In this document: positions 6,976-43,050 of the stretch, in pieces
Numbering within the stretch: position 1 is the first letter of the stretch
Layout of the letters: every line of letters begins with the position of its first letter
From: Spirochaetaceae bacterium
Lineage (GTDB): Bacteria; Myxococcota_A; UBA9160; UBA4427
Direction: 5' to 3'
NCBI GenBank assembly: GCA_020632655.1
Contig: JACKFD010000009.1
Coordinates: 6,945 to 70,944, forward strand
Length of the DNA stretch: 64,000 nucleotides
The notes under the pieces: model-generated
Told to the model about the DNA's origin: nothing
The model's input: the letters and a program-made list of their open reading frames with translations, nothing else
Database searches by the model: none
Made by a program: the position numbers and the translations under genes

Positions 6976-6998
6976 GGCGCGGCAGGATAGCGGCCGGC

Positions 6999-8069: not shown

Positions 8070-8181
8070 GTCGGGGTCTTCTCGGGGCGGCCGGGCGTCC
8101 GGCCGGGTTCGCAGGGGGCGGGAGGCTAGCAGGTTCGGCGCCCGGGCCCGTTCGCGCGCGGCGGAGCGCCGGGCGCGGGGA

Positions 8182-14863: not shown

Positions 14864-15064
14864 TCAGAAGAGCGTGTAGATGAATGGCGCCGCGGCCGTG
14901 CCACCGAGCAGGACCAGCAGGCCGAGCCCCAGGATCGCGATCACGATCGGGGCGAGCCACCACTTCTTGTTCTCCTTCAGGAAGTCGGTGAACTCGCTTG
15001 CGAGGCTCGAGCGTCCGCCGCTCGCCTGGGCCGCGAAATCGTCCTTCTGCTCGTCCTGGGCCAT
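14864..15064 (-). CDS. DUF5989-family small membrane protein (SxtK-sized partner of carbamoyltransferase/SxtJ loci)
   Basis: '...EFTDFLKENKKWWLAPIVIAILGLGLLVLLGGTAAAPFIYTLF'. The 'KKWWL.PI....L....L....G....PFIYTLF' ending matches what I recall for this family. Confidence 0.75.
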   Translation of the reverse strand: MAQDEQKDDFAAQASGGRSSLASEFTDFLKENKKWWLAPIVIAILGLGLLVLLGGTAAAPFIYTLF

Positions 15065-15171
15065 TCGATTGCTCCCTCCGTCCGGTCGCCTCGGACGGGT
15101 CGTGGGTGGTGCGTTCGGGCTCGTTGCTCACGGGGCGGCGCGCGCCGCCGGATTGCGGCGTGCGAATCGCG

Positions 15172-15618
15172 CTAGAACTGGCGGAAGTAGCTCTCCTTGC
15201 CCCGGCGCGGACGGGGGTCGGACCAGTAGGTCGTTGCCTGCGGCTCGAAGCGGCGCTGGAGCGGGTCCTTGCCGAGGAGTCGGAACAGCAGTCCCGTAGG
15301 CGTGATCAGGCCGTAGAAGAGGAAGCCCATGATCACGTACGAGAGGACGAACCCGATCGGGAAGGAGAGCAGCGTCAGGCCGAGGTAGATCGGCAGGTTC
15401 GCTCGCGGCGCCACCAGCGAGAAGAGCGCCGAGATCCCGGCGAGGGCCGCGAAGGTGCCCGCGACGATCGGCCGGGCGGCGCCGAGCCCGAAGGAGAAGA
15501 CGAGCAGCTCCCGCCAGGCGATGAAGGCGAGGAATCCGAAGCCGACCAGTGCGATCAGTCCGAATTGTCGCAGCGTCCGGTCGTCGGGTCGCCAGTTGAT
15601 CTCGATCATCTTGCTCAT
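15172..15618 (-). CDS. SxtJ-family membrane protein
   Basis: 'MSKMIEINWRPDDRTLRQFGLIALVGFGFLA...' is followed by further TM segments and 'FYGLITPTGLLFRLLGKDPL'. It sits between the carbamoyltransferase and the DUF5989 gene, which is the usual arrangement. Confidence 0.75.
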   Translation of the reverse strand: MSKMIEINWRPDDRTLRQFGLIALVGFGFLAFIAWRELLVFSFGLGAARPIVAGTFAALAGISALFSLVAPRANLPIYLGLTLLSFPIGFVLSYVIMGFLFYGLITPTGLLFRLLGKDPLQRRFEPQATTYWSDPRPRRGKESYFRQF

Positions 15619-15693
15619 TCGAGGATTCCTGCTCGGGCGGCTCGAGTCCGCCGGGTCGGGTCGTGTGGGTGCGGGAGGAGCCTGCGCGCGCGC

Positions 15694-17523
15694 TCAGTCG
15701 AGGGCGAACTCCGCGAGGTACGCATCCACGTCGATCTCCTTCGCGTTCGGCTGGTCCTGCTTCAGGATCACGAAGTTCTCGAGCACGAGTGCGTCCATGT
15801 TCGTGTACATGAAGCAGCGGAAGGCGTCCTCGGGCGTGTTGACGATCGGCTCGCCCCGGACGTTGAAGCTCGTGTTGATCACGACGGGCGAGCCCGTCTT
15901 CTGCTTGAAGCGCTCGATGATCTTGTAGAAACGCGGGTGGTGCTGCATGTCGATCGTCTGCACCCGCGCGGAGTAGTCGACGTGCGTGATCGCCGGGACC
16001 GTCGAACGGAGCTGCTTGAGCTTGTCGAGCCCGCGCGCGCCGTCGTCGTCCACCGCGAGCCGCTTCGCGTCGCGAACCGGCGCCACGAGCAGCATGTAGG
16101 GGCTGTTCTCGTCCGGCCGCATCTCGAAGAACTCGTCGACGTGCTCCCGCAGCACGGCCGGCGCGAAGGGCCGGAACGACTCGCGGAACTTGATCTTCAG
16201 GTTCATCGTCGCCTGCATGTTCCGCGAGCGCGCATCACCGAGGATCGAACGCGATCCGAGCGCGCGCGGGCCGAACTCCGCGCGATCCGAGAAATGCCCC
16301 ACGACCTGCTCGCTCGCGATCAGCTCGGCCACGCGGTCGACGAGCTCGTTCTCGTCCGGGTAGTAGTGGTAGATCGCCTCGGCCGAGTCGAGGTAGGCGC
16401 GGATCTCGTCGTTCGAGAAGCTGGGACCGAGCAGGGATCCGTACTGCGAGTCCTGGGCGACGACCTCGCGCGGCTTGTCGAGCAGCTCGTGCCAGGTGAA
16501 GAGCGCCGCGCCGAGGGCCCCGCCGGCGTCGCCGGCCGCGGGCTGGATCCAGACCTGATCGAAGGGGCCTTCCCGAAGCACGCGCCCGTTGGCCACGCAG
16601 TTGAGCGCGACTCCGCCAGCCATCGTGAGGTTGCGCGCGCCCGTCAGCTCGTGGGCGTAGCGCGCGATCTTGAGCACGATCTCCTCGGTCACCGCCTGGA
16701 TCGAGGCGGCGATGTCCATCTCGCGCTGAGTGATCTCGGTCTCGGCCTTGCGCGGCGGACCGCCGAAGAGCGAGTCCATCTTCCGCGACGTCATCACGTC
16801 ACTGTCGCAGAACCCGAAATAAGACATGTCCATCCGGAACGAGCCGTCGTCCTTGATGTCGAGCAGCTTCTCGATCATCAGGTCCTTGTAGACGGGCTCG
16901 CCGTAGGGCGCGAGGCCCATCAGCTTGTACTCGCCGCTGTTGACCTTGAAGCCCGTGAAGTAGGTGAATGCCGAGTAGAGCAGGCCGAGGGAGTGCGGGA
17001 AACGCATCTCCTTCAGCATCTCGAGGCGGTTGCCCCGGCCGATCGCGATCGAGCCGGTCGCCCACTCCCCCACGCCGTCGAGCGTGAGCACGGCGGCCTC
17101 CTCGAAGGGCGACGGGTAGAACGCGCTGGCGGCATGGGACTCGTGGTGCTCGGTGAAGACGTAGCGGCCCTTGTATTCACGCTTCAGGCCGGCGTCGAGC
17201 TCCCGCGGCGTGTGCAGCTTCTGACGGAGCCAGAGCGGCATGCCCATCAGGAAGAGCTTGAACCCGGACGGCGCGTAGCTGATGTAGGTCTCGAGCAGTC
17301 GATCGAACTTGAGCAGCGGCTTGTCGTAGAAGGTGACGAGGTCGAGGTCCGCGGCGCGGATGCCGCCCTCGGCGAGGCAGAAGTCGACGGCGTTCTCCGG
17401 GAAGCGGTAGTCGTGCTTCTTGCGCGTGAAGCGCTCTTCCTGGGCGGCCGCAACGATCCGGCCGTCCTGGACCAGACAGGCCGCGCTGTCGTGGTAGTAG
17501 GCCGAGATTCCGAGAATGTTCAT
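15694..17523 (-). CDS. Carbamoyltransferase (NodU/CmcH/SxtI family)
   Basis: Part of track ORF 15694..18132, with ATG 17523. 'MNILGISAYYHDSAACLVQDGRIVAAAQEERFTRKKHDYRFP' is the canonical N-terminus. The C-terminal part includes 'TSFNVRGEPIVNTPEDAFRCF'. Confidence 0.93.
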   Translation of the reverse strand: MNILGISAYYHDSAACLVQDGRIVAAAQEERFTRKKHDYRFPENAVDFCLAEGGIRAADLDLVTFYDKPLLKFDRLLETYISYAPSGFKLFLMGMPLWLRQKLHTPRELDAGLKREYKGRYVFTEHHESHAASAFYPSPFEEAAVLTLDGVGEWATGSIAIGRGNRLEMLKEMRFPHSLGLLYSAFTYFTGFKVNSGEYKLMGLAPYGEPVYKDLMIEKLLDIKDDGSFRMDMSYFGFCDSDVMTSRKMDSLFGGPPRKAETEITQREMDIAASIQAVTEEIVLKIARYAHELTGARNLTMAGGVALNCVANGRVLREGPFDQVWIQPAAGDAGGALGAALFTWHELLDKPREVVAQDSQYGSLLGPSFSNDEIRAYLDSAEAIYHYYPDENELVDRVAELIASEQVVGHFSDRAEFGPRALGSRSILGDARSRNMQATMNLKIKFRESFRPFAPAVLREHVDEFFEMRPDENSPYMLLVAPVRDAKRLAVDDDGARGLDKLKQLRSTVPAITHVDYSARVQTIDMQHHPRFYKIIERFKQKTGSPVVINTSFNVRGEPIVNTPEDAFRCFMYTNMDALVLENFVILKQDQPNAKEIDVDAYLAEFALD

Positions 17524-17780
17524 GTCGAGCAGGACCTCTGGTGCCGCGACCCCGCGGGCGACGAATCGGGCGGATCGACGGGGGCTCTCGAGCGCCCGCA
17601 GGGTAGCGGATCCCCCCGCCGAGCGACCCGACTGCGTGGTCTCGAACGGCGCTGGGCCGCTCGAGGCCTCCCGCGAGTAGGTGCCGTATGGACGAGTCCG
17701 GGTGACTTTCCGGCGTGGTCCGGAACGGAGGCCGCTTCCAGACGCCGCCCCGCCCTCGTCGGACACCGCGCGTCTGCGCT

Positions 17781-18104
17781 TCAGCCCTTCTTGAACAGGC
17801 TCTCGAGATCCGCGAGGACCGTGCGCCGGATCTCGTCTCCGGTCGCCGGACCCGATGCGGGTCGGAACCACTCGCATCGGTTCGCCCGGTCCTTGTCGAG
17901 GACGCGATCCGCACCCGGCTCCCGGCACTCGTTGTAGGACGCCGGATCGTGATGCGCGCAGCACAGGCAGACGTGCAGGTCGGCTCGACAACGGTCGCAG
18001 GCATCCCGGAAGCCGACGGATTCGCCCGTGGCGAGCGGGATCTCCGACTGGCAGGCGTGACACTGCATCGCGCAAGCCTGCAGCAGAAGTCGCGCAGTCG
18101 CCAT
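17781..18104 (-). CDS. Small Cys-rich (10 Cys) putative zinc-binding protein
   Basis: 'MQCHACQSEIPL...FRDACDRCRADLHVCLCCAHHDPASYNECREPG...RANRCEWF' has two CxxC pairs plus CxCC. The start is either ATG 18104 or ATG 18068. It lies directly upstream of the carbamoyltransferase on the same strand. Confidence 0.5.
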   Translation of the reverse strand: MATARLLLQACAMQCHACQSEIPLATGESVGFRDACDRCRADLHVCLCCAHHDPASYNECREPGADRVLDKDRANRCEWFRPASGPATGDEIRRTVLADLESLFKKG

Positions 18105-18202
18105 CCGCGCCGCATCGACGCTCGCGTGGCACGCGACGGCGCGATCGATGGCCCGCGCGGACCGGTCAACTTTGTCCGGGCCGGCGCCGATGTCGGGGCA
18201 TC

Positions 18203-22174: not shown

Positions 22175-23197
22175 TCAGGACGCCTGCAGCCGCTCGATCG
22201 CCTTGCGCGCCAGATCGTCGTTCTTTCGATCCTTCGGAACCGGGAAGAGGATCCGTTCGGCCACGCCGTCGTACATCGAGAGCAGGATCTCGGGGATCTC
22301 GTCGTAGGTGCCGGAGGGTACGAAGGTGCGCATGATCTCGTCGGTCACGAGAGCGTTCATGTCCTGCCATCGTCCCTCGCGCGTGCAGTCCCGCAGCTTC
22401 TCGCCGACCTCGCGCCAGCCGTGGTACTCGAGCGCGGGCCAGTAGGCGGGCGTGCTGAGCGTGAAGACGAGGCTCTCCCGCGCCGCCGTGAGCTCCTCTT
22501 CGACCTCCGCGCGGGTCGCGCCGGTCGCGATCAGCGGCCCCGCCGTCATCTCGATCCGGACGTCGCGTCCGGCCAGTCGCGATCCCTCCTCGAGGCGCGG
22601 ACGAGTCACCGCCTTCAGGTAGCGCGCCTCGCTGTTGGTCGGATGCGTCTGGATGGCGTCGCCGACCTCGCCGACCGTGCGCGTCATCAGCGGTCCGACG
22701 GCGCCGAGCAGGATCGAGGGCGGACCCGCCTCGAGCGGCCCGGGATTGAAGAAGGGCTGCATGCGGTTGAGCGTGTAGGACTCGCTATGGAAGTCGAGCT
22801 TCGTGCCGTTCTGGAAGGTGTCGAAGCAGGCGCGCACGGCGTTCACGTAGTCGCGCAGCCGCGCGGCCGGGGCGCTCCAGGGCATGCCGAAGCGGCCGAC
22901 GATGTTGCCCTTGACCTGGGTCCCGAGGCCGAGCTGGAAGCGGCCCTTCGAGTAGTCCTGGAGATCCCACGCACCCTGGGCCGCCAACATCGGACTGCGT
23001 GCGAAGGCGACCAGCACGCCCTGGCTCACGCGAAGCCGGGTCGTCGCCCCGAGCGCCGCCATCGCCGACAGCATGCCGTCGTGGACGGCCTCGGCGACGG
23101 AGAGCGTGTCGTAGCCGAGGGATTCGACCCGCCGGGCATGATCGACCACGTCACGCAGCTTCACGTCGGCCCCCATCGTGGCCGTCACCTTCAACAT
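22175..23197 (-). CDS. LLM-class (luciferase-like) flavin/F420-dependent oxidoreductase
   Basis: Part of track ORF 22175..23440, with ATG 23197 after GGGAGA. 'VESLGYDTLSVAEAVHDGMLSAMAALGATTRLRV.QGVLVAFARSP...AQGAWDLQDYSKGRFQLGLG'. Confidence 0.85.
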   Translation of the reverse strand: MLKVTATMGADVKLRDVVDHARRVESLGYDTLSVAEAVHDGMLSAMAALGATTRLRVSQGVLVAFARSPMLAAQGAWDLQDYSKGRFQLGLGTQVKGNIVGRFGMPWSAPAARLRDYVNAVRACFDTFQNGTKLDFHSESYTLNRMQPFFNPGPLEAGPPSILLGAVGPLMTRTVGEVGDAIQTHPTNSEARYLKAVTRPRLEEGSRLAGRDVRIEMTAGPLIATGATRAEVEEELTAARESLVFTLSTPAYWPALEYHGWREVGEKLRDCTREGRWQDMNALVTDEIMRTFVPSGTYDEIPEILLSMYDGVAERILFPVPKDRKNDDLARKAIERLQAS

Positions 23198-23417
23198 CGA
23201 TCCGATCTCCCTGGACGCCCGTCCGTCGCTGAACGATTCGCGTGGCGACCGAGAATAGTCAGCCCCTCCGGACGGCGCTCCTTCGAGCGGACCCGCGGGC
23301 CCCGGGATGAGGACGCGCAGGGCGGCAGCGCCCGGCGCGTTAGACTCGCGTTTCACACCGGCCCGGATCGTGGCGACACGCACCGGGCCGACGAGAGACA
23401 TAGAGGAGGACGGCTCC

Positions 23418-23828
23418 ATGCCCGCACCGATCAAGCGCAACCAGACGCATTCCCTCGTCGTGGGCTACGTGCTCTGGATCTTCGGATTCCTCGGCTCGCA
23501 TCGCTTCTACTTCGGCAAGCCGATCTCGGGGACGATCTGGTTCCTGACCCTCGGCCTGCTCGGCGTGGGCTGGCTGATCGACCTCTTCCTGATGCCGTCC
23601 CTCGAGCGCCAGGCCGAGATCGCCTTCCACGACGGTCCCCTCGACTACAACCTGGCCTGGATCTTCCTCACCTTCCTCGGCGTCTTCGGTGTCCACCGCT
23701 TCTACCTCGGCAAGTGGATCACGGGCGTGCTCTACCTCCTGACGGGCGGTTTGCTCGGTCTCGGCATCATCTACGACTTCTGGACGCTGAACGACCAGGT
23801 CAGCCTCGAGAACGCGCAGGCCGCCTGA
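23418..23828 (+). CDS. TM2 domain-containing membrane protein (two TM2 repeats)
   Basis: Track ORF 23307..23828, with ATG 23418 after GAGGAGGA. The 'GFLGSHRFYFGK...G.IWFLTLGLLGVGWLIDLF' motif occurs twice; the second copy is 'GVFGVHRFYLGKWITGVLYLLTGGLLGLGIIYDFW'. Confidence 0.85.
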   Translation: MPAPIKRNQTHSLVVGYVLWIFGFLGSHRFYFGKPISGTIWFLTLGLLGVGWLIDLFLMPSLERQAEIAFHDGPLDYNLAWIFLTFLGVFGVHRFYLGKWITGVLYLLTGGLLGLGIIYDFWTLNDQVSLENAQAA

Positions 23829-23840
23829 GGGCGGGACGGG

Positions 23841-24395
23841 CTACTTGACGCGCTTGAGGACGTTGCGGTCGGTGTGCTGCATGACGCTGCCCGTGGCCTT
23901 CATCTCGAGGACGGTGGTCTCCTCGTAGGTCCAGGTATCCCCCTCGATGGTGCAGTCGAGCTTGTACTCGACGCAACGCGCGTTCTTCGCCAGATAGGGA
24001 TTCGAGAGCACGCCGAAGACCTCGTCCCCGGAGCGCGCCGAGAGGCTGAACTTCTTCGCGTCGGGCGCGCACTTCCCGCCGGCGAGGATCGTCGACCCGC
24101 GCGGCACCATGAAGCAGCGCATGACTTCCTGGCTCGCCGGATCCCAGATCCAGTAGCCGAGCTCCGTATGGAAGACCGAGTCCTGGCCCTTGCGCTTGGC
24201 GGCCGTCGTGTAGTCGATCACCCAGAGCTTCTGGCTGCCGTTGTCGACGTCGCCGACGACATTGAAGGTCGCCGTCTCGGTGTAGGGGTTCTCCGTGATC
24301 TTCTTGTGCTCATAGCTGTAGGAGACGTCGAGTCCGTCGTTTCCCTGCCAGGTGCCGATCAGGCCGGCGAGCGGTCCGAATTGTTCGTTGGCCAT
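23841..24395 (-). CDS. Nitrobindin/THAP4-like heme-binding beta-barrel (DUF1794/FABP-like) protein
   Basis: 'PLAGLIGTWQGNDGLDVSY' is the GxWxG start of the family. About 180 aa with beta-rich composition. Confidence 0.75.
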   Translation of the reverse strand: MANEQFGPLAGLIGTWQGNDGLDVSYSYEHKKITENPYTETATFNVVGDVDNGSQKLWVIDYTTAAKRKGQDSVFHTELGYWIWDPASQEVMRCFMVPRGSTILAGGKCAPDAKKFSLSARSGDEVFGVLSNPYLAKNARCVEYKLDCTIEGDTWTYEETTVLEMKATGSVMQHTDRNVLKRVK

Positions 24396-24437
24396 GGGTC
24401 TTCCCTTCTGGTGGTCGCGAAGGCGGCCGCCCGGGCG

Positions 24438-24451
24438 TCGCCGCGCGGCGA
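24438..24451. terminator. 14-bp perfect GC palindrome downstream of the peroxiredoxin gene (weak terminator candidate)
   Basis: 'TCGCCGCGCGGCGA' is embedded in 'gggcgTCGCCGCGCGGCGAgccc'. There is no U-tract. Confidence 0.25.
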
Positions 24452-24488
24452 GCCCGTTCGAGCCGTCGGATTCGATCGGGGGTCGGAA

Positions 24489-24962
24489 TCAGAGCGCTGC
24501 GAGGATGGCCTCTGCGCTGCTGACCTCGAACTTCATCGGCGCCTCGACGGCGAGCTTCGTGACCGTGCCGTCCTCGACGATCGCCGCGAAGCGCTGGCAG
24601 CGCAGGCCGAAGCCGATGCCCGAGCCATCGAAGTCGAGCCCGAGGGCCTTCGAGAAGGTGCCGTTGCCGTCGGCGACCAGACGGACCTTGTCCCCGACCC
24701 CGAGCGCCTCGCCCCAGGCCTTCATCACGAAGGCGTCGTTCACGGACAGGCAGACGATCTCGTCCACGCCCTTCGCGCGGATCGCGTCGGCGTGCTCGAC
24801 GAAGCCCGGCAGATGCTTGTTCGAGCAGGTCGGCGTGAAGGCACCGGGTACTGCGAAGAGGACGACCTTGCGGCCTCGAAAGATGTCGTCCGTGCCGACA
24901 TCGGACATGTCCGTCGCCTTGACCGTGACGGACGGGATCTTGTCGCCTTCCTGAATGGCCAT
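24489..24962 (-). CDS. Peroxiredoxin, Prx5 (atypical 2-Cys/1-Cys) subfamily
   Basis: 'KVVLFAVPGAFTPTCSNKHLPGFVEHADAIRAKGVDEIVCLSVNDAFVMKAWG' contains the PGAFTPTC peroxidatic-Cys motif. Confidence 0.92.
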   Translation of the reverse strand: MAIQEGDKIPSVTVKATDMSDVGTDDIFRGRKVVLFAVPGAFTPTCSNKHLPGFVEHADAIRAKGVDEIVCLSVNDAFVMKAWGEALGVGDKVRLVADGNGTFSKALGLDFDGSGIGFGLRCQRFAAIVEDGTVTKLAVEAPMKFEVSSAEAILAAL

Positions 24963-25225
24963 GCCGCGCTTCCTCCTGCGATGGTGCGGTTGCCGGGACC
25001 GATGCGGGCCCGAGCGGACGAACCATAGGGAAGATCGGGCGTCGTGGCGTTCCGTCGGTGCGGCTTGCGGTGCCCTGGGCTCCGGGCCCGGGCATCGGCG
25101 CCGATTGAGCCCGTCGGGTCGCTGGCATAGGCTCTGCGGGCTGCCGGCGACCGGTGGCCGCGGGCCCGGGACGTGTCGCCGACGAGCCCGGTCCGCGCGT
25201 CCCGGTGAGACGATTGGAGGAATCG

Positions 25226-25711
25226 ATGAGTCAGGCCCGCACGCCCGCTTCCCTCGCCGACCTCGGTCTGCCGCGGATCGATCAGGTCGGCTTCGTGGTG
25301 CGGTCGATCGCGGAGGCGCGCGAGCGCTACGGCCCCCTCTTCGGGCCCTGGCACGAGATGGACGGGTCGGTGCAGGCCGCCGACTACCGCGGTCGCAAGG
25401 CCGACGTCGAGCTGGCGATCCTCTTCGGACACTCGGGCGACGTCGAGATGGAATTCATCGAGTGGCGCGGCGGCGAGAGCCCCCATCGCGAGTTCATCGA
25501 GCAGGGACGCGAGGGCATGCACCACCTGCGCTACCGGGTCGACGACGCCGACGCATGGATCGCCCGCCTGGCGCCGCTCGGTTATGCGCCGATCTGGTAC
25601 AAGGTCTTCTCCGCGGACACGGTCTTCGCCTACCTCGAGCGTCCCGGCGACCCGCTGCTGATCGAGTTCCTGCAGATGCCCCCCGGCGGTCCGGGCACCA
25701 GCGGCGACTGA
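25226..25711 (+). CDS. VOC (glyoxalase/bleomycin-resistance/dioxygenase) family protein
   Basis: Track ORF 25154..25711, with ATG 25226 after GGAGGAA. 'IDQVGFVVRSIAEARERY' ... 'GMHHLRYRVDD.DAWIARL'. Confidence 0.8.
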   Translation: MSQARTPASLADLGLPRIDQVGFVVRSIAEARERYGPLFGPWHEMDGSVQAADYRGRKADVELAILFGHSGDVEMEFIEWRGGESPHREFIEQGREGMHHLRYRVDDADAWIARLAPLGYAPIWYKVFSADTVFAYLERPGDPLLIEFLQMPPGGPGTSGD

Positions 25712-25720
25712 GCCGCCCGT

Positions 25721-27007
25721 TCAGTCCTCGTCGGCCATCGCGCGCTCCTCGCGCTTCAGGCCGAAGGCGGCGTCGAGCGCGCCGCGATCGCTGCCCGCGG
25801 CGGAGAGCGACTCGGGCAGGTGCTCCGCGAGGGCCTCGAGCAGGCGATCGAGGTCGTCGAGGGTGTGATGCCGCGTGACGCCGAAGCGGATCCCGGTGCG
25901 ATCCTGTGGCACGGCGGGAAAAAGCGCACAGCTCGGGAGCAGTCCGTCGCGAAGCAGCGCCGACGCGAGCGCCGTCGAGGCAGCCTGCGGGCCGACGCCG
26001 ACGAAGCGGATCGGTACGACGCGCTCGCGGTGCAGCAGCGGCAGGTCGAGCTCCGCCGCACGTCGGTTCACGTGCTCGATCCGCGCGCGGAGCTCGCTTT
26101 GCAGTCGGGGCAGCTCGTCGGAGAGATGCAGCCGAGCGGATGCGACCGCGGCGCCGAGCATGGGGGGCTGGAGCGGTCCGGAGAAGTTGGTCGGGGCGGA
26201 GACGTGCCGCACACGCCGCCGCCAGGCCTCGTTCGGAAATACGAGGGCTGCGCCCCCGGCTGCGAAGGACTTGTTGAGCGACAGCGCCACGACGACCCGG
26301 TCGTGACCCGCCAGCCGATCGAGCGCGTGCCCCCGCCCGAAGCGCCCGGTCCAGCCCGTGCCATGCGCGTCGTCGACGTAGAGATGCAGCCTCGGATGGC
26401 GGTCGAGGAGCCAGGCGAGGGCCTCCACGTCGACCGGATCCCCGTGCATGCTGTAGATGCCGTCGACCAGCAGCCAGACGCGCTCCGTCGAGTCGGCGTG
26501 CTCGCGGAGCGCGTCCTCGAGCGCGTCGAGGCGCGCGTGGGGGAGTCGCGTGACCGGGATGCCGAGCTGCGCGAAGGTCGGCGCGACGGCCTGCACCGAC
26601 ATGTGCACCTGCTGGTCGAGCAGCACGGCATCCCCGGGCTCGACGAGCGAGGGCAACGCCGCCGCGGTCGCGAGCGTCGTCGTCGGGAGCACGAGCACGG
26701 GCGAGCCGGCGATCTCTTCGAGCAGGGCCTCGAGCTCGGCGTAGGGCGGAGCCGAGACGAACGCCCGGGACATCGAGAACTGCGTGCCGAAGCGCCGCGT
26801 CGCCGCGACGGCGCCCTCGATCAGCCGCTCGTCGTGCTCGAGGCCGAGATAGCTGCAGGAGCAGAAGTTGAGCAGCGAGCGTCCGGCGACCCGCACGGTC
26901 CGCCCGTCGAGCAGCTCGTCTTCCGCATCGAGCAAGCCCACGCCGAGCTCCCGGGCGAGGGAGCCGACCGCGTCACAGGCGTCGAAGAGGGTTCGAAGGG
27001 GATGCAT
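25721..27007 (-). CDS. PLP-dependent alpha-oxoamine synthase family enzyme (BioF/KBL/SPT/CqsA superfamily); substrate unknown
   Basis: Part of track ORF 25721..29017, with ATG 27007. Motifs: 'LLNFCSCSYLGLEHDERL', 'LLVDGIYSMHGD', 'LYVDDAHGTGWTGRFGRG', and the Schiff-base Lys context 'VVALSLNKSFAAGGAALVF'. No bio or sphingolipid genes are nearby. Confidence 0.85.
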   Translation of the reverse strand: MHPLRTLFDACDAVGSLARELGVGLLDAEDELLDGRTVRVAGRSLLNFCSCSYLGLEHDERLIEGAVAATRRFGTQFSMSRAFVSAPPYAELEALLEEIAGSPVLVLPTTTLATAAALPSLVEPGDAVLLDQQVHMSVQAVAPTFAQLGIPVTRLPHARLDALEDALREHADSTERVWLLVDGIYSMHGDPVDVEALAWLLDRHPRLHLYVDDAHGTGWTGRFGRGHALDRLAGHDRVVVALSLNKSFAAGGAALVFPNEAWRRRVRHVSAPTNFSGPLQPPMLGAAVASARLHLSDELPRLQSELRARIEHVNRRAAELDLPLLHRERVVPIRFVGVGPQAASTALASALLRDGLLPSCALFPAVPQDRTGIRFGVTRHHTLDDLDRLLEALAEHLPESLSAAGSDRGALDAAFGLKREERAMADED

Positions 27008-27144
27008 GACGGAGGGGCCTGCACGCAGCGGGCGTCCCGCTCCGTTCGGCGCCGGGCCGGCTCGGGAGCGTGACGGCCGACACGGGACCGCTCTCGGGAT
27101 CGGCCGAACCAACGCGCCCTTCCGCTTCCGCGCGAGCCCTCCGC

Positions 27145-28731
27145 CTACACGCGGATTGCGTCGTCGACGCCGGGATCCAGGAGCGGCAGACAGAGTCGTA
27201 CGAGCACGCGTCGGGCATGATCGTGGGGCGCCTCGAGATCGGTCACGAGCAATCCCTCGTCCGCGTCCTCGAGGAGCCGCCGCAGCGGCGTCAGTCTCTC
27301 CGCCTCGACCGGGTACGCTTCGGCGACCAGCCGGATCTCGACGGACGTGGGCGGCGAATCGTCCCGGTCGCCCGTGGTCAGCGCACGCACCTCGAGCCGC
27401 ACCGGTCCCTCCGCCAGCTCCTCGAGCATCGCCGTCGCCCGCAGCAGCAGCGCGCGCAGCGACTCGACGTCGAAGCAGGCGAAGAGGGGCTTCGGCGCGT
27501 CGTCGAGCCCGACCGCGACCGCCGCGGGGCCGAGCTCGTCGACGACCCGTGCGAGGAAGCCGAGCAGGTCGAGACTCGCGATGCCTTGCTCCGCTCCGCC
27601 CTCCCCGCTTCCGGCCCCCGTGATCAGCCGGTCGAGCCGAGCGGAGAGCGCCTGCCAGTCGCGCGCATCCTCCGACAGCAGGTCGAGCAGATGGGCTGCG
27701 AGGGCCTTCGAGCCGCCGTACTCGAGCGCGAAGGCGACCCAGGGCAGCATCCAGTCGAGCGAGGCGGCGAGATCGGCATCTCCGGCCGTCCAGACCTGCA
27801 GTCGTCCGATCACGCGGTCTCCGATGCGGAGGGTGGCCTCTCGCACCGGCGGTCCGACGCAGTCCCCGCACTCGACGGCGCGCGAGGGGTCGCTCTCGGG
27901 ACCACGTCGCGTGAGCCGGACCCCCTGCGCACCGAGACGCCGCTCGAGCAGTCGGCACAGCGTCTCCTGCAGCGAGGGCAGGTCGCGTGGCGGTCCGGCC
28001 ACGAGCAGCGTGCCCAGCTCGTTCAGCCCGTCGAAGGAAGCCGTCTGTCGGCGCAGTCGCTCGCGCAGGGCCGCGATCCGCCGCTCGGAGTCGATCAGCC
28101 GCTCCTCCGCAAAGGCGGCGTCTTCGAGCTCGCGCCCGAGCCGCCTCGCCGGTCCGCGCGGTGCGCTCCGCAGACGCAGCCCGTGCCAGCCCGTCCGACC
28201 CGGGGGCGGCGTGATCAGGAACTCGCCCTCCCGCCCATCCTGCTCGAGCGAGACCAGCGCGTCGGGCTGTCCGAGAAGTCGAGGCATGGCACGGAGCGTG
28301 CCGCGCAGGCCCGCGAAGAACTCGGGACACGCGGGGTGCTCCGGGAGGATCCGCACGACCTCGCGCAGCCGACCGTCGGGCAGTCGCTCGCACGTTCCGG
28401 CGGTGCCGCGGAAGACGAAGGGCCCCCACCATCGCGGCGCCAGGGTGAAGAGCGTGCGCGAGTCGCGCAGCCGTGGCAGGAACCGACGAATCGGACCCGG
28501 CACGCCATCGAGGGTCGCCGCTGCAGCCAGCTCCTCGAGCGTGTCCTCGCCGAGCATCTTGGAGGCGCGGCGTGCGAAGCCCGCGAACTCCGACCACGGC
28601 ACGCGCCCCCAGCGGTTCTCGAAGGCCTCGAGCCGGAGCCCGAGCCCCTCGACGAGCTGCTGGGGATCGAGCCCGCGCGCCCGGGTCGCTGCCACGATCG
28701 GCGCGCTGCACAGACCGGACACATCCGACAT
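27145..28731 (-). CDS. Soluble multidomain sensor-like protein: DUF2378/H-NOX-like N-domain, coiled coil, GAF-like middle, degenerate kinase-like C-domain
   Basis: This is the longest ORF here with a protein-like (Leu/Ala/Glu) composition; the opposing 798-aa ORF is Arg/Gln/Pro-rich. The N-terminus 'GLDPQQLVEGLGLRLEAFENRWGRVPWSEFAGFARRASKMLGED' resembles the Myxococcus TIGR02265/DUF2378 family (from memory). The coiled coil is 'ERRIAALRERLRRQ'. I see no TM segment and no clear H-box, N-box or G-box. Confidence 0.55.
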   Translation of the reverse strand: MSDVSGLCSAPIVAATRARGLDPQQLVEGLGLRLEAFENRWGRVPWSEFAGFARRASKMLGEDTLEELAAAATLDGVPGPIRRFLPRLRDSRTLFTLAPRWWGPFVFRGTAGTCERLPDGRLREVVRILPEHPACPEFFAGLRGTLRAMPRLLGQPDALVSLEQDGREGEFLITPPPGRTGWHGLRLRSAPRGPARRLGRELEDAAFAEERLIDSERRIAALRERLRRQTASFDGLNELGTLLVAGPPRDLPSLQETLCRLLERRLGAQGVRLTRRGPESDPSRAVECGDCVGPPVREATLRIGDRVIGRLQVWTAGDADLAASLDWMLPWVAFALEYGGSKALAAHLLDLLSEDARDWQALSARLDRLITGAGSGEGGAEQGIASLDLLGFLARVVDELGPAAVAVGLDDAPKPLFACFDVESLRALLLRATAMLEELAEGPVRLEVRALTTGDRDDSPPTSVEIRLVAEAYPVEAERLTPLRRLLEDADEGLLVTDLEAPHDHARRVLVRLCLPLLDPGVDDAIRV

Positions 28732-29202
28732 CGCCGCACCCTCCTGCGAGTGTCCCGGGTCGCGAGTCTACGCCGCCGGGCTCGCGAGCGACACGGTGGG
28801 GCCGGCTTCCCCTGCCCTGGAAAATCTGGTAAATCGCCCGAACGGTTCGCATCGCAGAGCGGAAGGGGAGCCGGCCAGGGCGGCCTGGCCCCAGGCCACT
28901 CGAGGCGATGCCCCGATCAGAGGAATCCTCGCCCGGACGGCCGCCAGCGGGCCCGCTCGCCCGCACGCATCGCGCAGTCCGATCCGGGTCCGCCTGGTCC
29001 CTCCATCCCGCACTCACGACGACCCGACGGATCGCCCTGCTTCGTGCGCGGCGAGTTCGGCGATGCGTCCGCCGATCGCGGTCGCAGTGCTCCCGCCGCG
29101 GTCGCCGTCGCGAGGTGCGCCGTGAGCGCCCGGGTGGCCGGGTGCACGGGTGGACGGCTCGCGGTCCGGCATGCGAGGAGGGTGTGGACGAGGAGGCGCG
29201 GC

Positions 29203-29466
29203 ATGGACGAGGAGCGAGCCGAGTCGCTGGTCGACGACTTCGACCGGCTCATGGAGCTGCACGAGGAGTACGCGGACGCGGTCGAGTCCGACGATGCGGA
29301 GACGCGTGAGCTCTGGGAGTCGCTGGATCAGCAGATGAGCGCACTCGCGCGGCGCATCGCGCGTCTGCGCGACGGCGGATCGGCGAGCAAGTCGCAGCTC
29401 GACGACCTCGAAGCGGTCATCGAGGAGCTCGACGAGGCCTACAGCGAGCTCGCCGACCGCCTCTAG
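29203..29466 (+). CDS. Small acidic coiled-coil protein (87 aa)
   Basis: This is the tail of track ORF 27070..29466, with ATG 29203 lying 7 nt after AGGAGG. 'MDEERAESLVDDFDRLMELHEEYADAVESDDAETRELWESLDQQMSALARRIARL...LDDLEAVIEELDEAYSELADRL'. Confidence 0.5.
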   Translation: MDEERAESLVDDFDRLMELHEEYADAVESDDAETRELWESLDQQMSALARRIARLRDGGSASKSQLDDLEAVIEELDEAYSELADRL

Positions 29467-38775: not shown

Positions 38776-38859
38776 GCCACCCCGCGCACGACCACCTCGA
38801 GTGGCTCGTCGCGCGGCTCGCCCCCCTCGCCCCCCATCCACGAACGGAGGATCCCGACC

Positions 38860-40887
38860 TTGTGTGGCATCGCCGGCGTATTCCACGCGGACCGCGACAG
38901 GCCGATCGACCCGGAGACCCTGGTCGCGATGGCCGCGATCCAGCATCACCGCGGTCCCGACGGCTTCGGCTGGCAGGCCTTCGACGGGATCGGCATGAGC
39001 CACGCGCGCTTGTCGATCATCGACCTCGACGCGAATCGAGGCCGACAGCCTTTCGTGAGCGCGGACCGTCGTTTCCTGCTCGCCCAGAACGGCGAGTTCT
39101 ACGACTACCAGCGCATCCGTGCCGAGCTCGTGGCGCGCGGCGCCCGATTCGCGACCAGGAGCGACTCGGAGATCCTGCTCCATCTCGCGCCTCGCCTCGG
39201 GGTCGAAGAGAGCCTGCCCCATCTGCGCGGCGAGTTCGCCTTCGCCCTCTACGATCGGGATGCCGACGAGCTCTCGCTCGTTCGGGACCGCTTCGGGATC
39301 AAGCCGCTCTACTACGTCGTCGTCGGCGACCGGCTCGTCTTCGGATCCGAGCTGAAGGTGCTCTTCGCGCATCCCGACGTGCCGCGTCGTTTCGATCCGG
39401 CCGGGCTCTTCCATCAGCTCATGCAGACCATCGTGCCCGGCACCACGGCCTTCGCCGGCATCCGTCAGGTGCCGCCGGGACACGTCGTACGGGTGCGACG
39501 TCGGGACGGCCGGCTGCAGGTCGAGGAGCGACGCTACTGGGACATCGACTTTCCCGAGGCGGGGGGGCACGCGGCCACGACCGATGCGGAGGCCGTCGAC
39601 GTCGTGCGCAGCGGCCTGCTCGAGGCGGTGCAGCTGCGGCTCGAGGCCGACGTCCCCGTCGGTTGCTACCTCTCGGGCGGGATCGACTCCTGCTCGATCC
39701 TCGGCCTGGCATCGGCGGTCCGCCAGGGGCCCGTGAAGGCGTTCACGATCGGCTTTGACAATGCCGACTACGACGAGACACCGATCGCCCGGGAGATGGC
39801 GCGATCGGTCGACGCGGATCAGGACGTCCTGCGGCTCGATGCGACGCATCTCTACGATCATTTCGAGGAGACGCTCTGGCATACCGAGCGCACGATCTAC
39901 AACACCCTCGCCGTGGCGAAGCTCCTGATGAGTCGCCACGTCCGGGACGCGCACTACAAGGTCGTCGTCACGGGCGAGGGATCCGACGAGCTCTTCGCCG
40001 GCTACCCGGCCTTCCGCAACGATCTCTTCCTGCACGGCGCCGACGAGCTGCCCGCATCCGATCGCGAGGAGTGGGCTCGCGCGCTCCACGATCAGAACGC
40101 GCTGTTCAAGGGGGCCATGCTCGCCGAGGCGGAGATCGTCGATCCGGCGCTCACCTCGCGTGTCGGGTTCACCCCCGCCTGCCTGCAGCCCTGGCTGGCC
40201 GCCGCGCGACACGTGCCGGGACTGCTCCATCCGGACGTCGCCCGGGAGCTCACGGGCTACGACCCCGGCGCGGCCATCGCCGAGGCCCTCGATGCGTCGG
40301 CTCTCGCGAAGCGCCATCCGCTCGATCGGGCGCAGTACGTCTGGATCAAGACGATGCTCGAGGGGCAGATCCTGACCTGGGGCGGGGATCGCGTGGACAT
40401 GGCGAACTCGATGGAGGCGCGCCCGGCCTTCCTCGACCACCACCTCGCGGAGCGGGCGGCGACCCTGCCGCCCTCCGTGCGCATCCGGGGGCGCACGGAG
40501 AAGTGGGTGCTGCGGGAGGCGATGAAGGGCCTGCTGCCGCGGGTGCTCTACGAGCGCGAGAAGTTCGCGTTCATGGCTCCGCCGGCGCATACCGACCCGC
40601 ATAAGTGGGCGGCCATGCGCGGTCTGGCCGAGCGACACCTCTCGCCGGAGGCGATCGCATCCGCGGGCCTGCTCTCCGTCGACGGGGTCGACGCCCTCTT
40701 CGCGCTGCACGATGCGCCCGACACGACGGATGCGACGCGCAACACCCTCGATGCCGTCTTCAATCACATGATCGGCGTGCAGGTGCTGCACGCGCATTTC
40801 GTGGCGGCCGACGTGCCCGCGCTGGCCCGTGCCCGGGCTCGCGAGCTCGGCTGGTCGGCGGCGGGGGCCGAGCCCGCTCGAGCGTGA
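38860..40887 (+). CDS. Asparagine synthetase B-family glutamine amidotransferase (AsnB-like, 675 aa)
   Basis: TTG start after ACGGAGGA, giving 'MCGIAGVF' (Ntn catalytic Cys2). Other motifs: 'RLSIIDL', 'LAQNGEFYDY', and the PP-loop 'VGCYLSGGIDSCSI'. Confidence 0.9.
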   Translation: MCGIAGVFHADRDRPIDPETLVAMAAIQHHRGPDGFGWQAFDGIGMSHARLSIIDLDANRGRQPFVSADRRFLLAQNGEFYDYQRIRAELVARGARFATRSDSEILLHLAPRLGVEESLPHLRGEFAFALYDRDADELSLVRDRFGIKPLYYVVVGDRLVFGSELKVLFAHPDVPRRFDPAGLFHQLMQTIVPGTTAFAGIRQVPPGHVVRVRRRDGRLQVEERRYWDIDFPEAGGHAATTDAEAVDVVRSGLLEAVQLRLEADVPVGCYLSGGIDSCSILGLASAVRQGPVKAFTIGFDNADYDETPIAREMARSVDADQDVLRLDATHLYDHFEETLWHTERTIYNTLAVAKLLMSRHVRDAHYKVVVTGEGSDELFAGYPAFRNDLFLHGADELPASDREEWARALHDQNALFKGAMLAEAEIVDPALTSRVGFTPACLQPWLAAARHVPGLLHPDVARELTGYDPGAAIAEALDASALAKRHPLDRAQYVWIKTMLEGQILTWGGDRVDMANSMEARPAFLDHHLAERAATLPPSVRIRGRTEKWVLREAMKGLLPRVLYEREKFAFMAPPAHTDPHKWAAMRGLAERHLSPEAIASAGLLSVDGVDALFALHDAPDTTDATRNTLDAVFNHMIGVQVLHAHFVAADVPALARARARELGWSAAGAEPARA

Positions 40888-40983
40888 TTCGCGTTCGGCG
40901 CATGCGGCCCGCGTGCGCCGGGTGCCCTATCGTGCCGGAAGGCCAGGCGTCGGATCCGACGGTCTTGTGCACGGGAGCGTCGC

Positions 40984-43050
40984 TTGATGGCGGGAGGGGC
41001 GTGGGTCGCCTGGATGGCAGCGGGAGCGGTCCTGGCCTCGGCGGCGCGGGGCCTCGGGCGCCGACGCGGGACCGCGGCGATGGCCGCCGGGCCGCCGGAG
41101 GTGAGCGATCGGGCGCCTGCGAGTGCGGCCGATCCCCGCTTTGCGGCCCTGGTGGAGGGCACCCGGGAGATCATCTTCGAGATCCGCGAGGATGGCCGCG
41201 TCGCGAGCGCCTTCGGCACGGCCCATACCGGCTGGTCCACCGAGCAGGTCCTCGGCCTCTCGGCCTTCGACTTCGCGCACCCCGAGGACGCGGCCGCCAT
41301 GCGCGAGGCGCTGACGGCCTTCGTCGACCGGGGCGATGCGCGGCCGCGCGAGGTGCGCGGCCTCCACGCGGACGGCGTGTATCGCTGGTACGAGCTCCGA
41401 GCGGCCCGCTACACGACGCCCGACGGCGAGCCCCGCGTGCTCGTGATGGGCCAGGACATCGAAGAGCGGAAGCAGGCCGAGCTCGCCCTGCGTGAGAGCG
41501 AGCAGCGCTTCCGATCCCTGGTCGATCAGTCGCCCTTCGGCGTGCTGATCGTCGACGGCCAGCTGAACGTCGTCGCCGCAAACCGGGCTTATGCCGAGCT
41601 CGTTGGCGCCGGATCCGTCGAGACACTCGGTCCGCACAACCTCTGGAAGTCGCCGGCCCTCGCCGCAGTCTCGACCCACGAGCTGATCGAGCGGGTCGCT
41701 TCCGGCGAGCGGATCGTGACGGAGGTGTCCTACACGAGCCTCTTCGGCAAGCAGGTCGATGTCCGCGCGCACATCGCACCGCTCTCGGACGAGCGCGGTC
41801 AGGTCGTCGGCGCGCAGCTCCTCTTCGAGGACGTCTCCGCCAGCCGGGCGCTCGAGGACCAGCTCCGCCAGTCCCAGAAGATGGAGGCGGTCGGTCGCCT
41901 GGCCGGCGGCATCGCCCACGACTTCAACAACTACCTGACCGTCATCCTCGGATGCGGCGAAGCGATTCGCGAAGACAGCCCGCCGGGCAGCGAGATCCAC
42001 GAGGCCTCCGACCAGATCGTCGAGGCGGCGGAGCGCTCGGCGGCGCTGACCCGGCAGCTGCTCGCCTTCAGCCGCCGACAGGTGACGCGGCCCGAAGTCG
42101 TCGACCTCGGGGACATCGTCTCCCGGCTCGAACCGATCCTCCGGCGCGTGCTCGGCGACGGGATCGCGCTGCGCTGCGAGGTCCGACCGGGTCGTCCGTC
42201 GATCTGGGCTGATCCATCGCTGCTCGAGCAGGTCCTGATGAACCTCACGGCCAACGCGCGCGATGCGATGGCGCAGGGCGGATGCCTCGAGATCGTCGTC
42301 TCTCCGGCGCCGTCGACCGAGGCGGAGGCCGGAGGGAGCCGACCGGCGGTGATGCTGGAGGTGCGGGACGAGGGCGTCGGCATGGAGCCTGCGACGCGCG
42401 CACGCATCTTCGAGCCCTTCTTCACGACCAAGCCCGAATCTCTCGGCACGGGGCTCGGCCTGTCGACCGTCTACGGCATCGTGCGGCAGCTCGGCGGTTC
42501 GATCGAGGTCGAGAGCGAGCCGGGTCGGGGAAGCAGGTTCCGGATCTCGATTCCGGAATGCGACGAAGAGCGCGTGCTCGCTGCGCGTACCGGTCGCATC
42601 CCCCAGCCGGATCTGGGCGGCAACGAGCGCATCCTGCTGGTCGAGGACGAGGCGACGATCCGGGGACTCGCCGCCGACGTGCTTCGGCGCGGGGGCTACG
42701 CGGTCGTCGAGGCGGTGGATGGCTGTGATGCGCTGGATCGCCTGCGCAAGGACCGGACGCGCTTCGACCTCGTCCTGACCGACGTGCTGATGCCCCGGAT
42801 GAACGGGGTCGAGCTCGCGCGTGCCTTGCGGACGGAGGAGCCGGAGCTGCCCGTGCTCTTCATGTCGGGTTATGCGGAGGCGATGCTCGAGCAGGACGGC
42901 GGTCTCCCCCGCGACGTCGATCTCCTGCAGAAGCCCTTCTCGCCGCGCAGTCTCCGCGCTCGGGTGCGCGCCGTGCTCGATCGGAAGGCGGAGCCCGCCG
43001 CCGGGTCCCCTGCCTCGGAGGCCGCATCCGGATCGGGCGCCGACGCCTGA
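40984..43050 (+). CDS. PAS-domain hybrid sensor histidine kinase / response regulator
   Basis: Two PAS regions ('[22 protein letters not shown]'). The H-box is '[22 protein letters not shown]'. HATPase motifs are '[10 protein letters not shown]', 'DEGVGM' and '[11 protein letters not shown]'. The receiver is '[11 protein letters not shown]...[14 protein letters not shown]'. The start could be TTG 40984 or ATG 40987. Confidence 0.9.

Follow-up and report, generated by a model that had tools for sequence, protein, structure and literature searches.

A Conserved Alpha-Oxoamine Synthase–Sensor Gene Pair of Uncultured Myxococcota Looks Like an Undescribed Kind of Signal Synthase and Receptor

Introduction

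Enzymes that belong to the family of alpha-oxoamine synthases (AOS) can act as signal synthases, and the gene of such an enzyme may stand beside that of its receptor, as in the CqsA/CqsS system (PMC3285556). In Bacteroides fragilis, the AOS Lgs and a TetR protein form ligand-synthase–receptor pairs, in which the cytoplasmic receptor is proposed to bind the released product (PMC13080023). Another AOS, Alb29 of Streptomyces albogriseolus, uses L-glutamate and acyl-CoA in the biosynthesis of albogrisin (PMC11906848). Here we analyze a pair of adjacent genes in a 64-kb stretch of DNA (contig JACKFD010000009.1; ~71% G+C), referred to below, at its full length, as the window. One gene encodes a stand-alone AOS of 428 amino acids (aa) and the other a soluble 528-aa sensor protein. 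Together they look like an undescribed kind of signal maker and receptor, and not like a part of biotin, heme, or sphingolipid metabolism. To our knowledge, autoinducers derived from AOS enzymes, such as CAI-1 and LAI-1, have so far been tied to kinases with six transmembrane (TM) helices, in a few Gammaproteobacteria and their relatives, and, in a more recent case, to a TetR repressor in Bacteroides.

Results

Conservation of the Gene Pair

Gene models were based on six-frame open reading frames (ORFs), on codon-position GC, and on independent gene calls on a matching contig of a Myxococcota metagenome-assembled genome (MAG; GCA_041389465.1). The three sources concur on the three ORFs delimited by the initial annotation, that is, the two genes of the pair and a small acidic ORF described further below. 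The sensor gene lies upstream of the AOS gene, on the same strand and 137 bp from it:

27145..28731 (−), soluble sensor/pseudo-histidine kinase, 528 aa; homologs, AlphaFold2 (AF2) model, Foldseek
27008..27144 (−), 137-bp spacer between the sensor and AOS genes; free of promoter-like and terminator-like sites in a sequence scan
25721..27007 (−), AOS, dependent on pyridoxal phosphate (PLP), stand-alone, 428 aa; PF00155, catalytic residues, clade in the neighbor-joining (NJ) tree

Around the pair, the scan turned up neither a sigma70 promoter nor an intrinsic terminator, nor a sigma54 promoter consensus. Because no promoter or terminator separates the two genes, and because their order, strand, and short gaps are the same in relatives, they probably form a single transcription unit.

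By scanning one genome per species, we identified sensor homologs at 11 loci, all in Myxococcota-type MAGs, 10 of which adjoin an AOS gene. The AOS ortholog (62–68% identity) is located directly downstream and on the same strand in nine of these loci, is divergent in one, and is absent from one, so that the gene pair noticed in the window is kept in nearly every relative. No other neighbor gene of the window gave a hit in the 11 loci (L003–L013; tblastn, E ≤ 1e-5). All-against-all clustering of neighbors was confounded by spurious high-GC ORFs, and only the sensor and the AOS were broadly shared. The single sensor homolog without an adjacent AOS (L011:9965-10690) is a 242-aa ORF that consists of the N-terminal domain alone and could represent either a free-standing sensor domain or a fragment of a gene.

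The linkage was also surveyed from the enzyme side, in 80 metagenomic AOS loci. At 62–66% identity to the window AOS, every locus with enough upstream DNA had the sensor just upstream (8/8; L022–L028 and L057), two of these loci being duplicates of genome loci already counted. Many loci at 49–54% identity have the sensor as well, there in the form of a genuine kinase, and the sensor was not detected at loci of 48% identity or less, where some contigs lack upstream DNA. All sensor-linked AOS enzymes fall into one clade of the NJ tree, outside of which no AOS was found with a sensor beside it; the tree, not bootstrapped, takes E. coli Kbl as its root and BioF as a further reference. On the sensor side, genuine hybrid kinases that share 21–32% identity with the window protein still adjoin an AOS (HisKA+HATPase_c+REC proteins P0156/L014, P0160/L015, P0164/L104, P0178/L105, and P0198/L107), and the linkage thereby spans four sensor outputs: genuine hybrid kinase, relic kinase, receiver, and truncated forms. 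Given this synteny, we are confident that the sensor and the AOS are functionally coupled.

Two further observations concern these loci. Some MAG records label contigs that bear the Myxococcota-type module as Spirochaetaceae or Spirochaetales (L004, L012, and the record of protein P0032, which shares 100% identity with the window AOS), which likely reflects mis-binning or mislabeling. Moreover, two separate AOS clades repeatedly show, near the AOS, a PEBP/YbhB-family gene (L006:15090-15659, L026:9604-10173, and loci L059–L087) whose product has an N-terminus that is hydrophobic and signal-peptide-like; the window lacks this gene.

The Alpha-Oxoamine Synthase

The AOS matches Pfam PF00155 (Aminotran_1_2; 2e-22), and the three motifs quoted for it in the initial annotation, NFCSCSYLGLEH, DDAHGTG, and SLNKSF, are all present in the translation. 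Two of its sequence features are placed as follows:

26264..26281 (−), SLNKSF motif with the PLP-binding K246; translation and family alignment
26837..26860 (−), family signature SCSYLGLE with Cys51; family alignment

When 92 family sequences were aligned to E. coli BioF, residues H135, D182, S186, D212, H215, S243, and K246 of the window enzyme corresponded to H133, E175, S179, D204, H207, T233, and K236 of BioF. All seven positions are conserved in the family, and H135, D212, H215, and K246 are each invariant (K in 92/92 at K246). Judged by these residues, the protein is a catalytically intact, active-looking member of the alpha-oxoamine synthase superfamily (PLP fold type I). The family signature has Cys51 at the position where BioF and KBL have Asn47, and this cysteine is found in 91 of the 92 sequences.

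Placement within the superfamily was based on hidden Markov model (HMM) scores, on the ranking of PDB matches, and on the NJ tree, with only BioF and Kbl as references. The top NCBIfam match is NF005697 (PRK07505, "hypothetical protein"), at 246 bits for a cut-off of 342. The models for described enzymes gave 160 bits for BioF (TIGR00858; cut-off 426), 116 for SPT (cut-off 500), 111 for KBL (cut-off 460), 65.5 for the CqsA/LqsA-type autoinducer synthase (NF005526; cut-off 428), and 64 for ALAS (cut-off 339). Among solved structures, the closest relative is Alb29 (8xha; 1.7e-38, 136 bits over residues 31–388), followed by a Thermus AOS (97 bits), KBL (94), SPT (83), E. coli BioF (81), and ALAS (50); no CqsA structure was among the PDB matches at E ≤ 1e-10. 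The family forms a long branch in the tree, apart from E. coli BioF and Kbl. The AOS does not nest in BioF or SPT, and these profiles place it in an uncharacterized Alb29/PRK07505-like clade, not in a housekeeping equivalog. A tblastn search of plasmids retrieved only AOS genes of ~31–37% identity, on Ralstonia and Sinorhizobium megaplasmids.

These results bear on the simplest explanation of the locus, ordinary metabolism, in which the AOS would be the organism's BioF, KBL, or SPT and its neighbor an unrelated, decaying kinase gene. The name given to AOS homologs by JGI, "7-keto-8-aminopelargonate synthetase-like enzyme," would agree with it. However, the equivalog scores are all 2.5- to 7-fold under their cut-offs, the family lies on a long branch away from BioF and Kbl, and a family-invariant cysteine replaces Asn47 of BioF. 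In addition, almost all of the AOS clade is linked to the sensor, and the N-terminal domain of the sensor is strongly constrained (see below). Finally, as the initial annotation had reported, no biotin, sphingolipid, or heme genes (bio, spt, hem) were seen among the window ORFs scanned with Pfam, that is, those within ±10 kb of the pair and 20 further long ORFs. We thus hold this explanation to be very improbable, and synteny and HMM results together effectively refute it.

In most relatives, no stop codon separates the AOS frame from a further domain of ~400 aa with a match to PF13480 (GNAT/FemAB-like, "BioF2-like"), and the resulting proteins are bifunctional and ~810–860 aa long (L006–L010, L012, L014, L022–L028, L104, L105, and L107; e.g., L006:11487-13931). 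One of them is titled [quoted passage not shown] at NCBI. The stand-alone AOS characterizes the subclade of the window (the window, L003–L005, and L013). No PF13480 copy is present in the 64-kb window, and no stand-alone GNAT partner from the MAG of the window was found among 71 hits, a weak negative given that the search was limited by its word index. The GNAT extension has no NCBIfam match and no significant PDB match in sequence and profile searches, and a literature search retrieved no published function for AOS-GNAT fusions; neither did searches on PRK07505, PF12625, such fusions, or bCerS/Spt in Myxococcus return anything useful. A bacterial ceramide pathway (Spt plus N-acyltransferase) was considered for the AOS-GNAT proteins and found no support, as the SPT scores are low and no CerR-like or bCerS context was seen. 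As a separate observation, tandem AOS-GNAT genes occur on one contig with no sensor nearby (L037:1944-4361 and 5944-8430).

The Sensor Protein

The 528-aa protein has no Pfam or NCBIfam match, and searches of the PDB with the sequence and profile of its family gave no significant match. Its AF2 model is nonetheless confident (pLDDT 84), and 1093 relatives were retrieved with a profile from among 1.84 billion representative proteins; the protein thus has both homologs and a confidently predicted fold. It is devoid of TM helices, as first proposed, the highest 19-residue Kyte-Doolittle mean being 1.48. Foldseek searches with the full model returned the histidine-kinase cores of WalK, DesK, RetS, and ZraS, the CA domains of NtrB, MprB, ThkA, and LvrB, and GAF-containing phytochromes. 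From the N- to the C-terminus, the following parts can be delimited:

28192..28731 (−), predicted N-terminal ligand-binding domain, aa 1–180; H-NOX/VirS-N/V4R-type fold in the model
28420–28434 (−), invariant RWWGP in the N-terminal domain; family alignment
28000..28152 (−), coiled-coil linker, aa 194–244; unbroken helix in the AF2 model
27775..27981 (−), GAF-like alpha/beta domain, aa 251–319; fold only
27613..27774 (−), long helix at the DHp position, aa 320–373; alignment to genuine kinases
27172..27579 (−), CA (HATPase_c) relic, aa 385–520; alignment and Foldseek

The N-terminal domain, modeled alone (pLDDT 89.8, pTM 0.84), matches the H-NOX protein of K. algicida (6bde; TM-score 0.62) and the drug-binding N-terminal domain of M. 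tuberculosis VirS (8rcw; TM-score 0.62, rmsd 3.8 Å), and more weakly the phenol sensor MopR. The motifs RWWGP, C114, and DGRxRE are invariant in it. The family alignment shows no conserved histidine and no YxSxR motif, and the Pfam scan no HNOB (PF07700) hit. Because the histidine and YxSxR are missing, the domain is not a heme H-NOX; as far as the model goes, it is a non-heme domain that resembles H-NOX at the fold level only. The initial annotation, which had called it "DUF2378/H-NOX-like," was therefore right about the H-NOX-like fold, whereas DUF2378 was matched by none of the 31 members of the sensor family scanned with Pfam at E ≤ 1. At the family level, PF12625 (AraC-type N-terminal ligand domain) is matched weakly by 16 of the 31 relatives (best E 2.2e-6), and a precomputed PF12625 hit exists for three database relatives; the window protein itself does not match at E ≤ 1. 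This weak match is the sole link of the domain to a described family in the sequence searches.

The coiled coil noted next in the initial annotation is present as a continuous helix in the AF2 model. The GAF-like middle is borne out by fold, through its secondary structure and the phytochrome and WalK matches, but not by any Pfam GAF, GAF_2, or GAF_3 hit.

The C-terminal part had been described as an ATPase fold stripped of its boxes, and comparison with genuine kinases of the family agrees with this description. The alignment shows that the H-box helix (AHDxNN in P0156, P0160, P0164, and others) is deleted in the window protein, that the N-box asparagine and the G1 motif DxGxG are missing, and that the F/G2 segment (FEPFFTTK...GTGLGLS) is deleted as well. 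The whole protein has two asparagines, at positions 39 and 237. His347, the only histidine in the helix at the DHp position, is not conserved in the family, and Pfam finds neither HisKA nor HATPase_c in the window protein. From its sequence, the protein is not a catalytically active kinase; it is a histidine kinase by descent and fold, that is, a pseudokinase. Within the close group, mean pairwise identity is 74% for the N-terminal domain, 42–52% for the other parts, and 43% for the CA relic. The closest relatives have a relic CA domain or a receiver at their end or are truncated, and many others have the same N-terminal module followed by HisKA+HATPase_c(+REC), by PAS-GGDEF-EAL, or by a histidine kinase with REC and an AraC-type helix-turn-helix.

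A protein that has lost kinase chemistry and kept the fold, at 43% mean pairwise identity, might also be a regulatory subunit of the enzyme. In that case it would bind the AOS directly and adjust how active the enzyme is or how it is supplied with substrate, with the H-NOX-like domain as an allosteric or substrate-presenting element and the degenerate kinase as a dimerization scaffold only. Stand-alone H-NOX proteins do regulate partner enzymes by direct contact, and the shared gene order and strand, the short gaps, and the lack of a terminator would suit such a partnership. On the other hand, the divergent arrangement of the two genes in L012, L041, L049, L072, L105, and L107 disfavors stoichiometric co-expression, the ancestral forms are full phosphorelay kinases, and the genes do not overlap or show any sign of translational coupling. 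We consider this explanation unlikely.

Other Enzymes Found beside the Sensor Family

Nine loci, hand-picked from the 1093 family hits, were read for the genes around the sensor. In this small sample, a ketone-forming C–C synthase adjoins the sensor-family protein in nine contexts out of nine: six are beside an AOS or AOS-GNAT and three beside an ALS-like thiamine diphosphate (TPP) enzyme (L017:967-2694(−), L106:2134-4970, and L109:1541-4388). The TPP enzymes score 362–393 bits on the ALS model (cut-off 538), two of the three also match ScyA-related models, and the L017 and L106 enzymes share 37% identity. In L106 and L109, a FabH-like KAS III gene lies between the TPP enzyme and sensor genes, all on one strand. 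AOS enzymes produce alpha-aminoketones and TPP carboligases of the ALS/ScyA type alpha-hydroxyketones, and the alpha-hydroxyketone CAI-1 itself has its origin in the product of an AOS.

More distant AOS genes also stand next to signaling genes. In a separate AOS-GNAT clade, a divergent gene for a PAS-GGDEF-EAL protein of ~527 aa is located just upstream (L020, L040, L063, L086, L088, and L096; e.g., L020:5695-7278), and in the actinobacterium Spirilliplanes yamanashiensis (L018:4928-11611) the AOS gene is flanked by multi-TM GGDEF-EAL and PAS-GGDEF-EAL genes. These GGDEF-EAL neighbors of distant AOS genes lack the N-terminal module of the sensor. Because pairings with signaling proteins recur, we favor a synthase and its receptor over plain metabolism.

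Other neighbors support a different explanation of the coupling, in which the sensor would detect an unrelated cue or a shared precursor (acyl-CoA, fatty acid, or redox state) and control the AOS pathway. The product would then be a lipid or secondary metabolite and not a signal, and in the window expression would be driven by another kinase, with the pseudokinase as its modulator. A cytochrome-c-like gene encoding ~300 aa directly follows the AOS-GNAT gene in L104:8938-9849, L105:1705-2595, and L107:1370-2344; L105 also has an O-methyltransferase and a LuxR-type response regulator (REC+GerE), and L107 a sigma54-type response regulator. Regulators of this kind beside the AOS-GNAT operon, and biosynthetic-looking genes behind it in distant loci, speak for such a scheme. 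The AOS-GNAT fusion suggests an N-acylated aminoketone and thus lipid-like chemistry, and the AOS and KAS III/TPP enzymes use acyl-thioester or keto-acid precursors, so a shared precursor could be the ligand. Against this, the linkage survives a total loss of kinase function, with the pair being the only conserved genes at the locus; GGDEF-EAL proteins, which are no transcription factors, also adjoin members of the wider enzyme family; and the window clade shows no conserved transporter, tailoring, or lipid-assembly gene near the pair. Control of a target pathway by its regulator is, in our opinion, possible but on the improbable side.

Surrounding Genes in the Window

One small gene is transcribed divergently from the sensor gene:

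29203..29466 (+), acidic coiled-coil ORF, 87 aa; gene call

Its existence and very acidic composition (28 D/E for 9 K/R) were correctly noted in the initial annotation. Its Pfam matches are all sub-threshold, and no homolog is present beside the pair in the 11 related genome loci searched with tblastn, which marks it, from sequence comparison, as a neighbor and not as a conserved part of the module.

Directly downstream of the AOS (22175-25711), a group of genes looks related to stress or redox functions and encodes a glyoxalase-fold protein, an AhpC/redoxin, a THAP4/nitrobindin-like heme-binding barrel, a TM2 protein, and a TIGR03617 F420-dependent LLM oxidoreductase. None of these genes is kept next to the pair in relatives. 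Further away, positions 15172-18165 (−) encode a carbamoyltransferase (Carbam_trans_N + Carbam_trans_C) followed by a small SxtJ-like protein (PF19588), a pairing that also occurs in the saxitoxin cluster, and an 88-aa ORF is found just past it (14864-15127). On the other side, the gene at 40888-43050 (+), directly preceded by an asparagine-synthase gene (38776-40887), encodes a genuine hybrid histidine kinase (two PAS, HisKA, HATPase_c, and REC) and is 12 kb away from that of the pseudokinase. This kinase is a possible partner of the pseudokinase; it is not conserved near the pair in other loci.

Discussion

A Candidate Synthase–Receptor Module

We propose that the two genes constitute one conserved signaling module. 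The AOS would condense an amino acid with an acyl-thioester into an alpha-aminoketone, and the N-terminal H-NOX/VirS-type pocket of the sensor would bind this product, a close derivative, or a pathway intermediate. The ancestral form may have been a cytoplasmic hybrid kinase (sensor module, HisKA, HATPase_c, and receiver) encoded next to an AOS-GNAT/FemAB-like fusion and coupling ligand binding to a phosphorelay, a form still present in deeper relatives. As the relatives have both the hybrid kinase and AOS-GNAT and the window has neither, the window module would be doubly reduced, its kinase having lost the phospho-acceptor helix and the nucleotide-binding boxes and its AOS the GNAT domain. 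Given the loss of the kinase motifs, the 528-aa protein would have to act as a ligand-dependent pseudokinase, with an output that may consist of protein–protein contacts with another kinase, with a regulator, or with the synthase itself.

In this scheme, we infer the identity of the product, its binding by the sensor, and the nature of the output. That the most constrained part of the sensor is its N-terminal domain, to which the model gives a fold of small-molecule sensors (H-NOX, VirS, and MopR), speaks for it. We give about even chances to the claim that the sensor binds the product of the enzyme or a metabolite of its pathway, for which we also infer the direction of the coupling. The idea of a cytoplasmic synthase–sensor pair, put forward in the initial annotation as a possible CqsA/CqsS-type system in a new format, has gained strength, from a linkage that extends down to ~21–32% sensor identity, from the four outputs, and from the TPP partners. 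None of the findings named there as refuting it was made: the enzyme lies outside BioF and SPT, the pair is syntenic, and the 528-aa protein has relatives and a fold. Membership of the CqsA/CqsS family did not hold, since the AOS scores 65.5 bits for a cut-off of 428 and the partner has neither six TM helices nor a working kinase.

Several points weigh against the module as we propose it. Adjacency suits the sensing of a product and the control of an enzyme by another cue alike, and the response regulators next to the AOS operon in L105 and L107 fit plain transcriptional control equally well. The invariant motifs of the sensor are the same whether or not the partner AOS has a GNAT domain, which would be odd if the final products differ. 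The window protein has no recognizable output domain, so that signaling would need a further partner. All members of the pair come from MAGs or metagenomes and none from a cultured organism, and the nine contexts, picked by hand from 1093 hits, make a small sample.

A broader possibility, which we advance as speculation and would not bet on, is that the window exemplifies a widespread intracellular signaling class, in which a non-heme domain of H-NOX/VirS fold recognizes alpha-substituted ketones made next door. The ligands might be aminoketones from AOS and AOS-GNAT enzymes and hydroxyketones from ALS-like TPP enzymes, and the outputs kinase, pseudokinase, receiver, and c-di-GMP enzymes, the window representing a reduced pseudokinase version in an uncultured Myxococcota lineage. 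A conserved pairing of another AOS clade with a soluble sensor of H-NOX fold would, for its part, extend synthase–receptor signaling to Myxococcota and other uncultured lineages and give the large orphan family of PF12625/H-NOX-like non-heme domains a candidate class of ligands. The loci would, moreover, form a natural series of decay or rewiring, from hybrid kinase to relic kinase and then to receiver-only or truncated forms on the sensor side, and from AOS-GNAT to AOS on the enzyme side.

Comparison with Known Systems

The module is analogous to CqsA/CqsS and to Lgs/TetR and, on both of its proteins, lies outside the CqsA/CqsS family. As in the alpha-hydroxyketone quorum-sensing pairs CqsA/CqsS of Vibrio and LqsA/LqsS of Legionella, the genes for an AOS-family enzyme and for a receptor of the histidine-kinase type are adjacent and co-inherited, and the ancestral module likewise has a hybrid kinase with a receiver. 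It differs from these systems in its enzyme, which scores far outside the CqsA/LqsA clade (65.5 vs. 428 bits) and many of whose orthologs have a fused GNAT domain, and in its receptor, where a cytoplasmic H-NOX/VirS-fold domain takes the place of the six TM helices of CqsS and LqsS and the window kinase is dead. The proximity of an AOS-family enzyme to a cytoplasmic receptor is shared with Lgs/TetR, in which, however, the TetR repressor binds DNA directly, whereas the sensor-(pseudo)kinase described here has no DNA-binding domain.

For the enzyme, the nearest described relative is Alb29, which, like the window AOS, falls outside the BioF, KBL, SPT, and ALAS equivalogs. Alb29 works in the albogrisin natural-product cluster and not beside a sensor, and the similarity between the two proteins is moderate, so that substrate specificity is not transferable from one to the other. 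BioF2-type AOS/GNAT proteins (PF00155 + PF13480) provide a second comparison, several orthologs of the window AOS being such fusions (L006–L010, L012, L014, L104, and L105), unlike the window copy, which has no GNAT domain.

For the sensor, the predicted N-terminal domain shares its fold with H-NOX and with the N-terminal domain of VirS/AraC proteins (PF12625), at a TM-score of 0.62 each in the model, and this sensor domain, like H-NOX, has genetic links to kinases and c-di-GMP enzymes. Unlike H-NOX, it has no heme-ligating histidine, no YxSxR motif, and no PF07700 hit, and it is fused to the kinase instead of being free-standing. The C-terminal part is comparable to the pseudo-histidine kinases RetS and DivL, which keep the fold without phosphotransfer chemistry, RetS being also among the best Foldseek matches. 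The loss is far greater here than in RetS and DivL, as the H-box helix is deleted and all ATP-binding boxes are gone.

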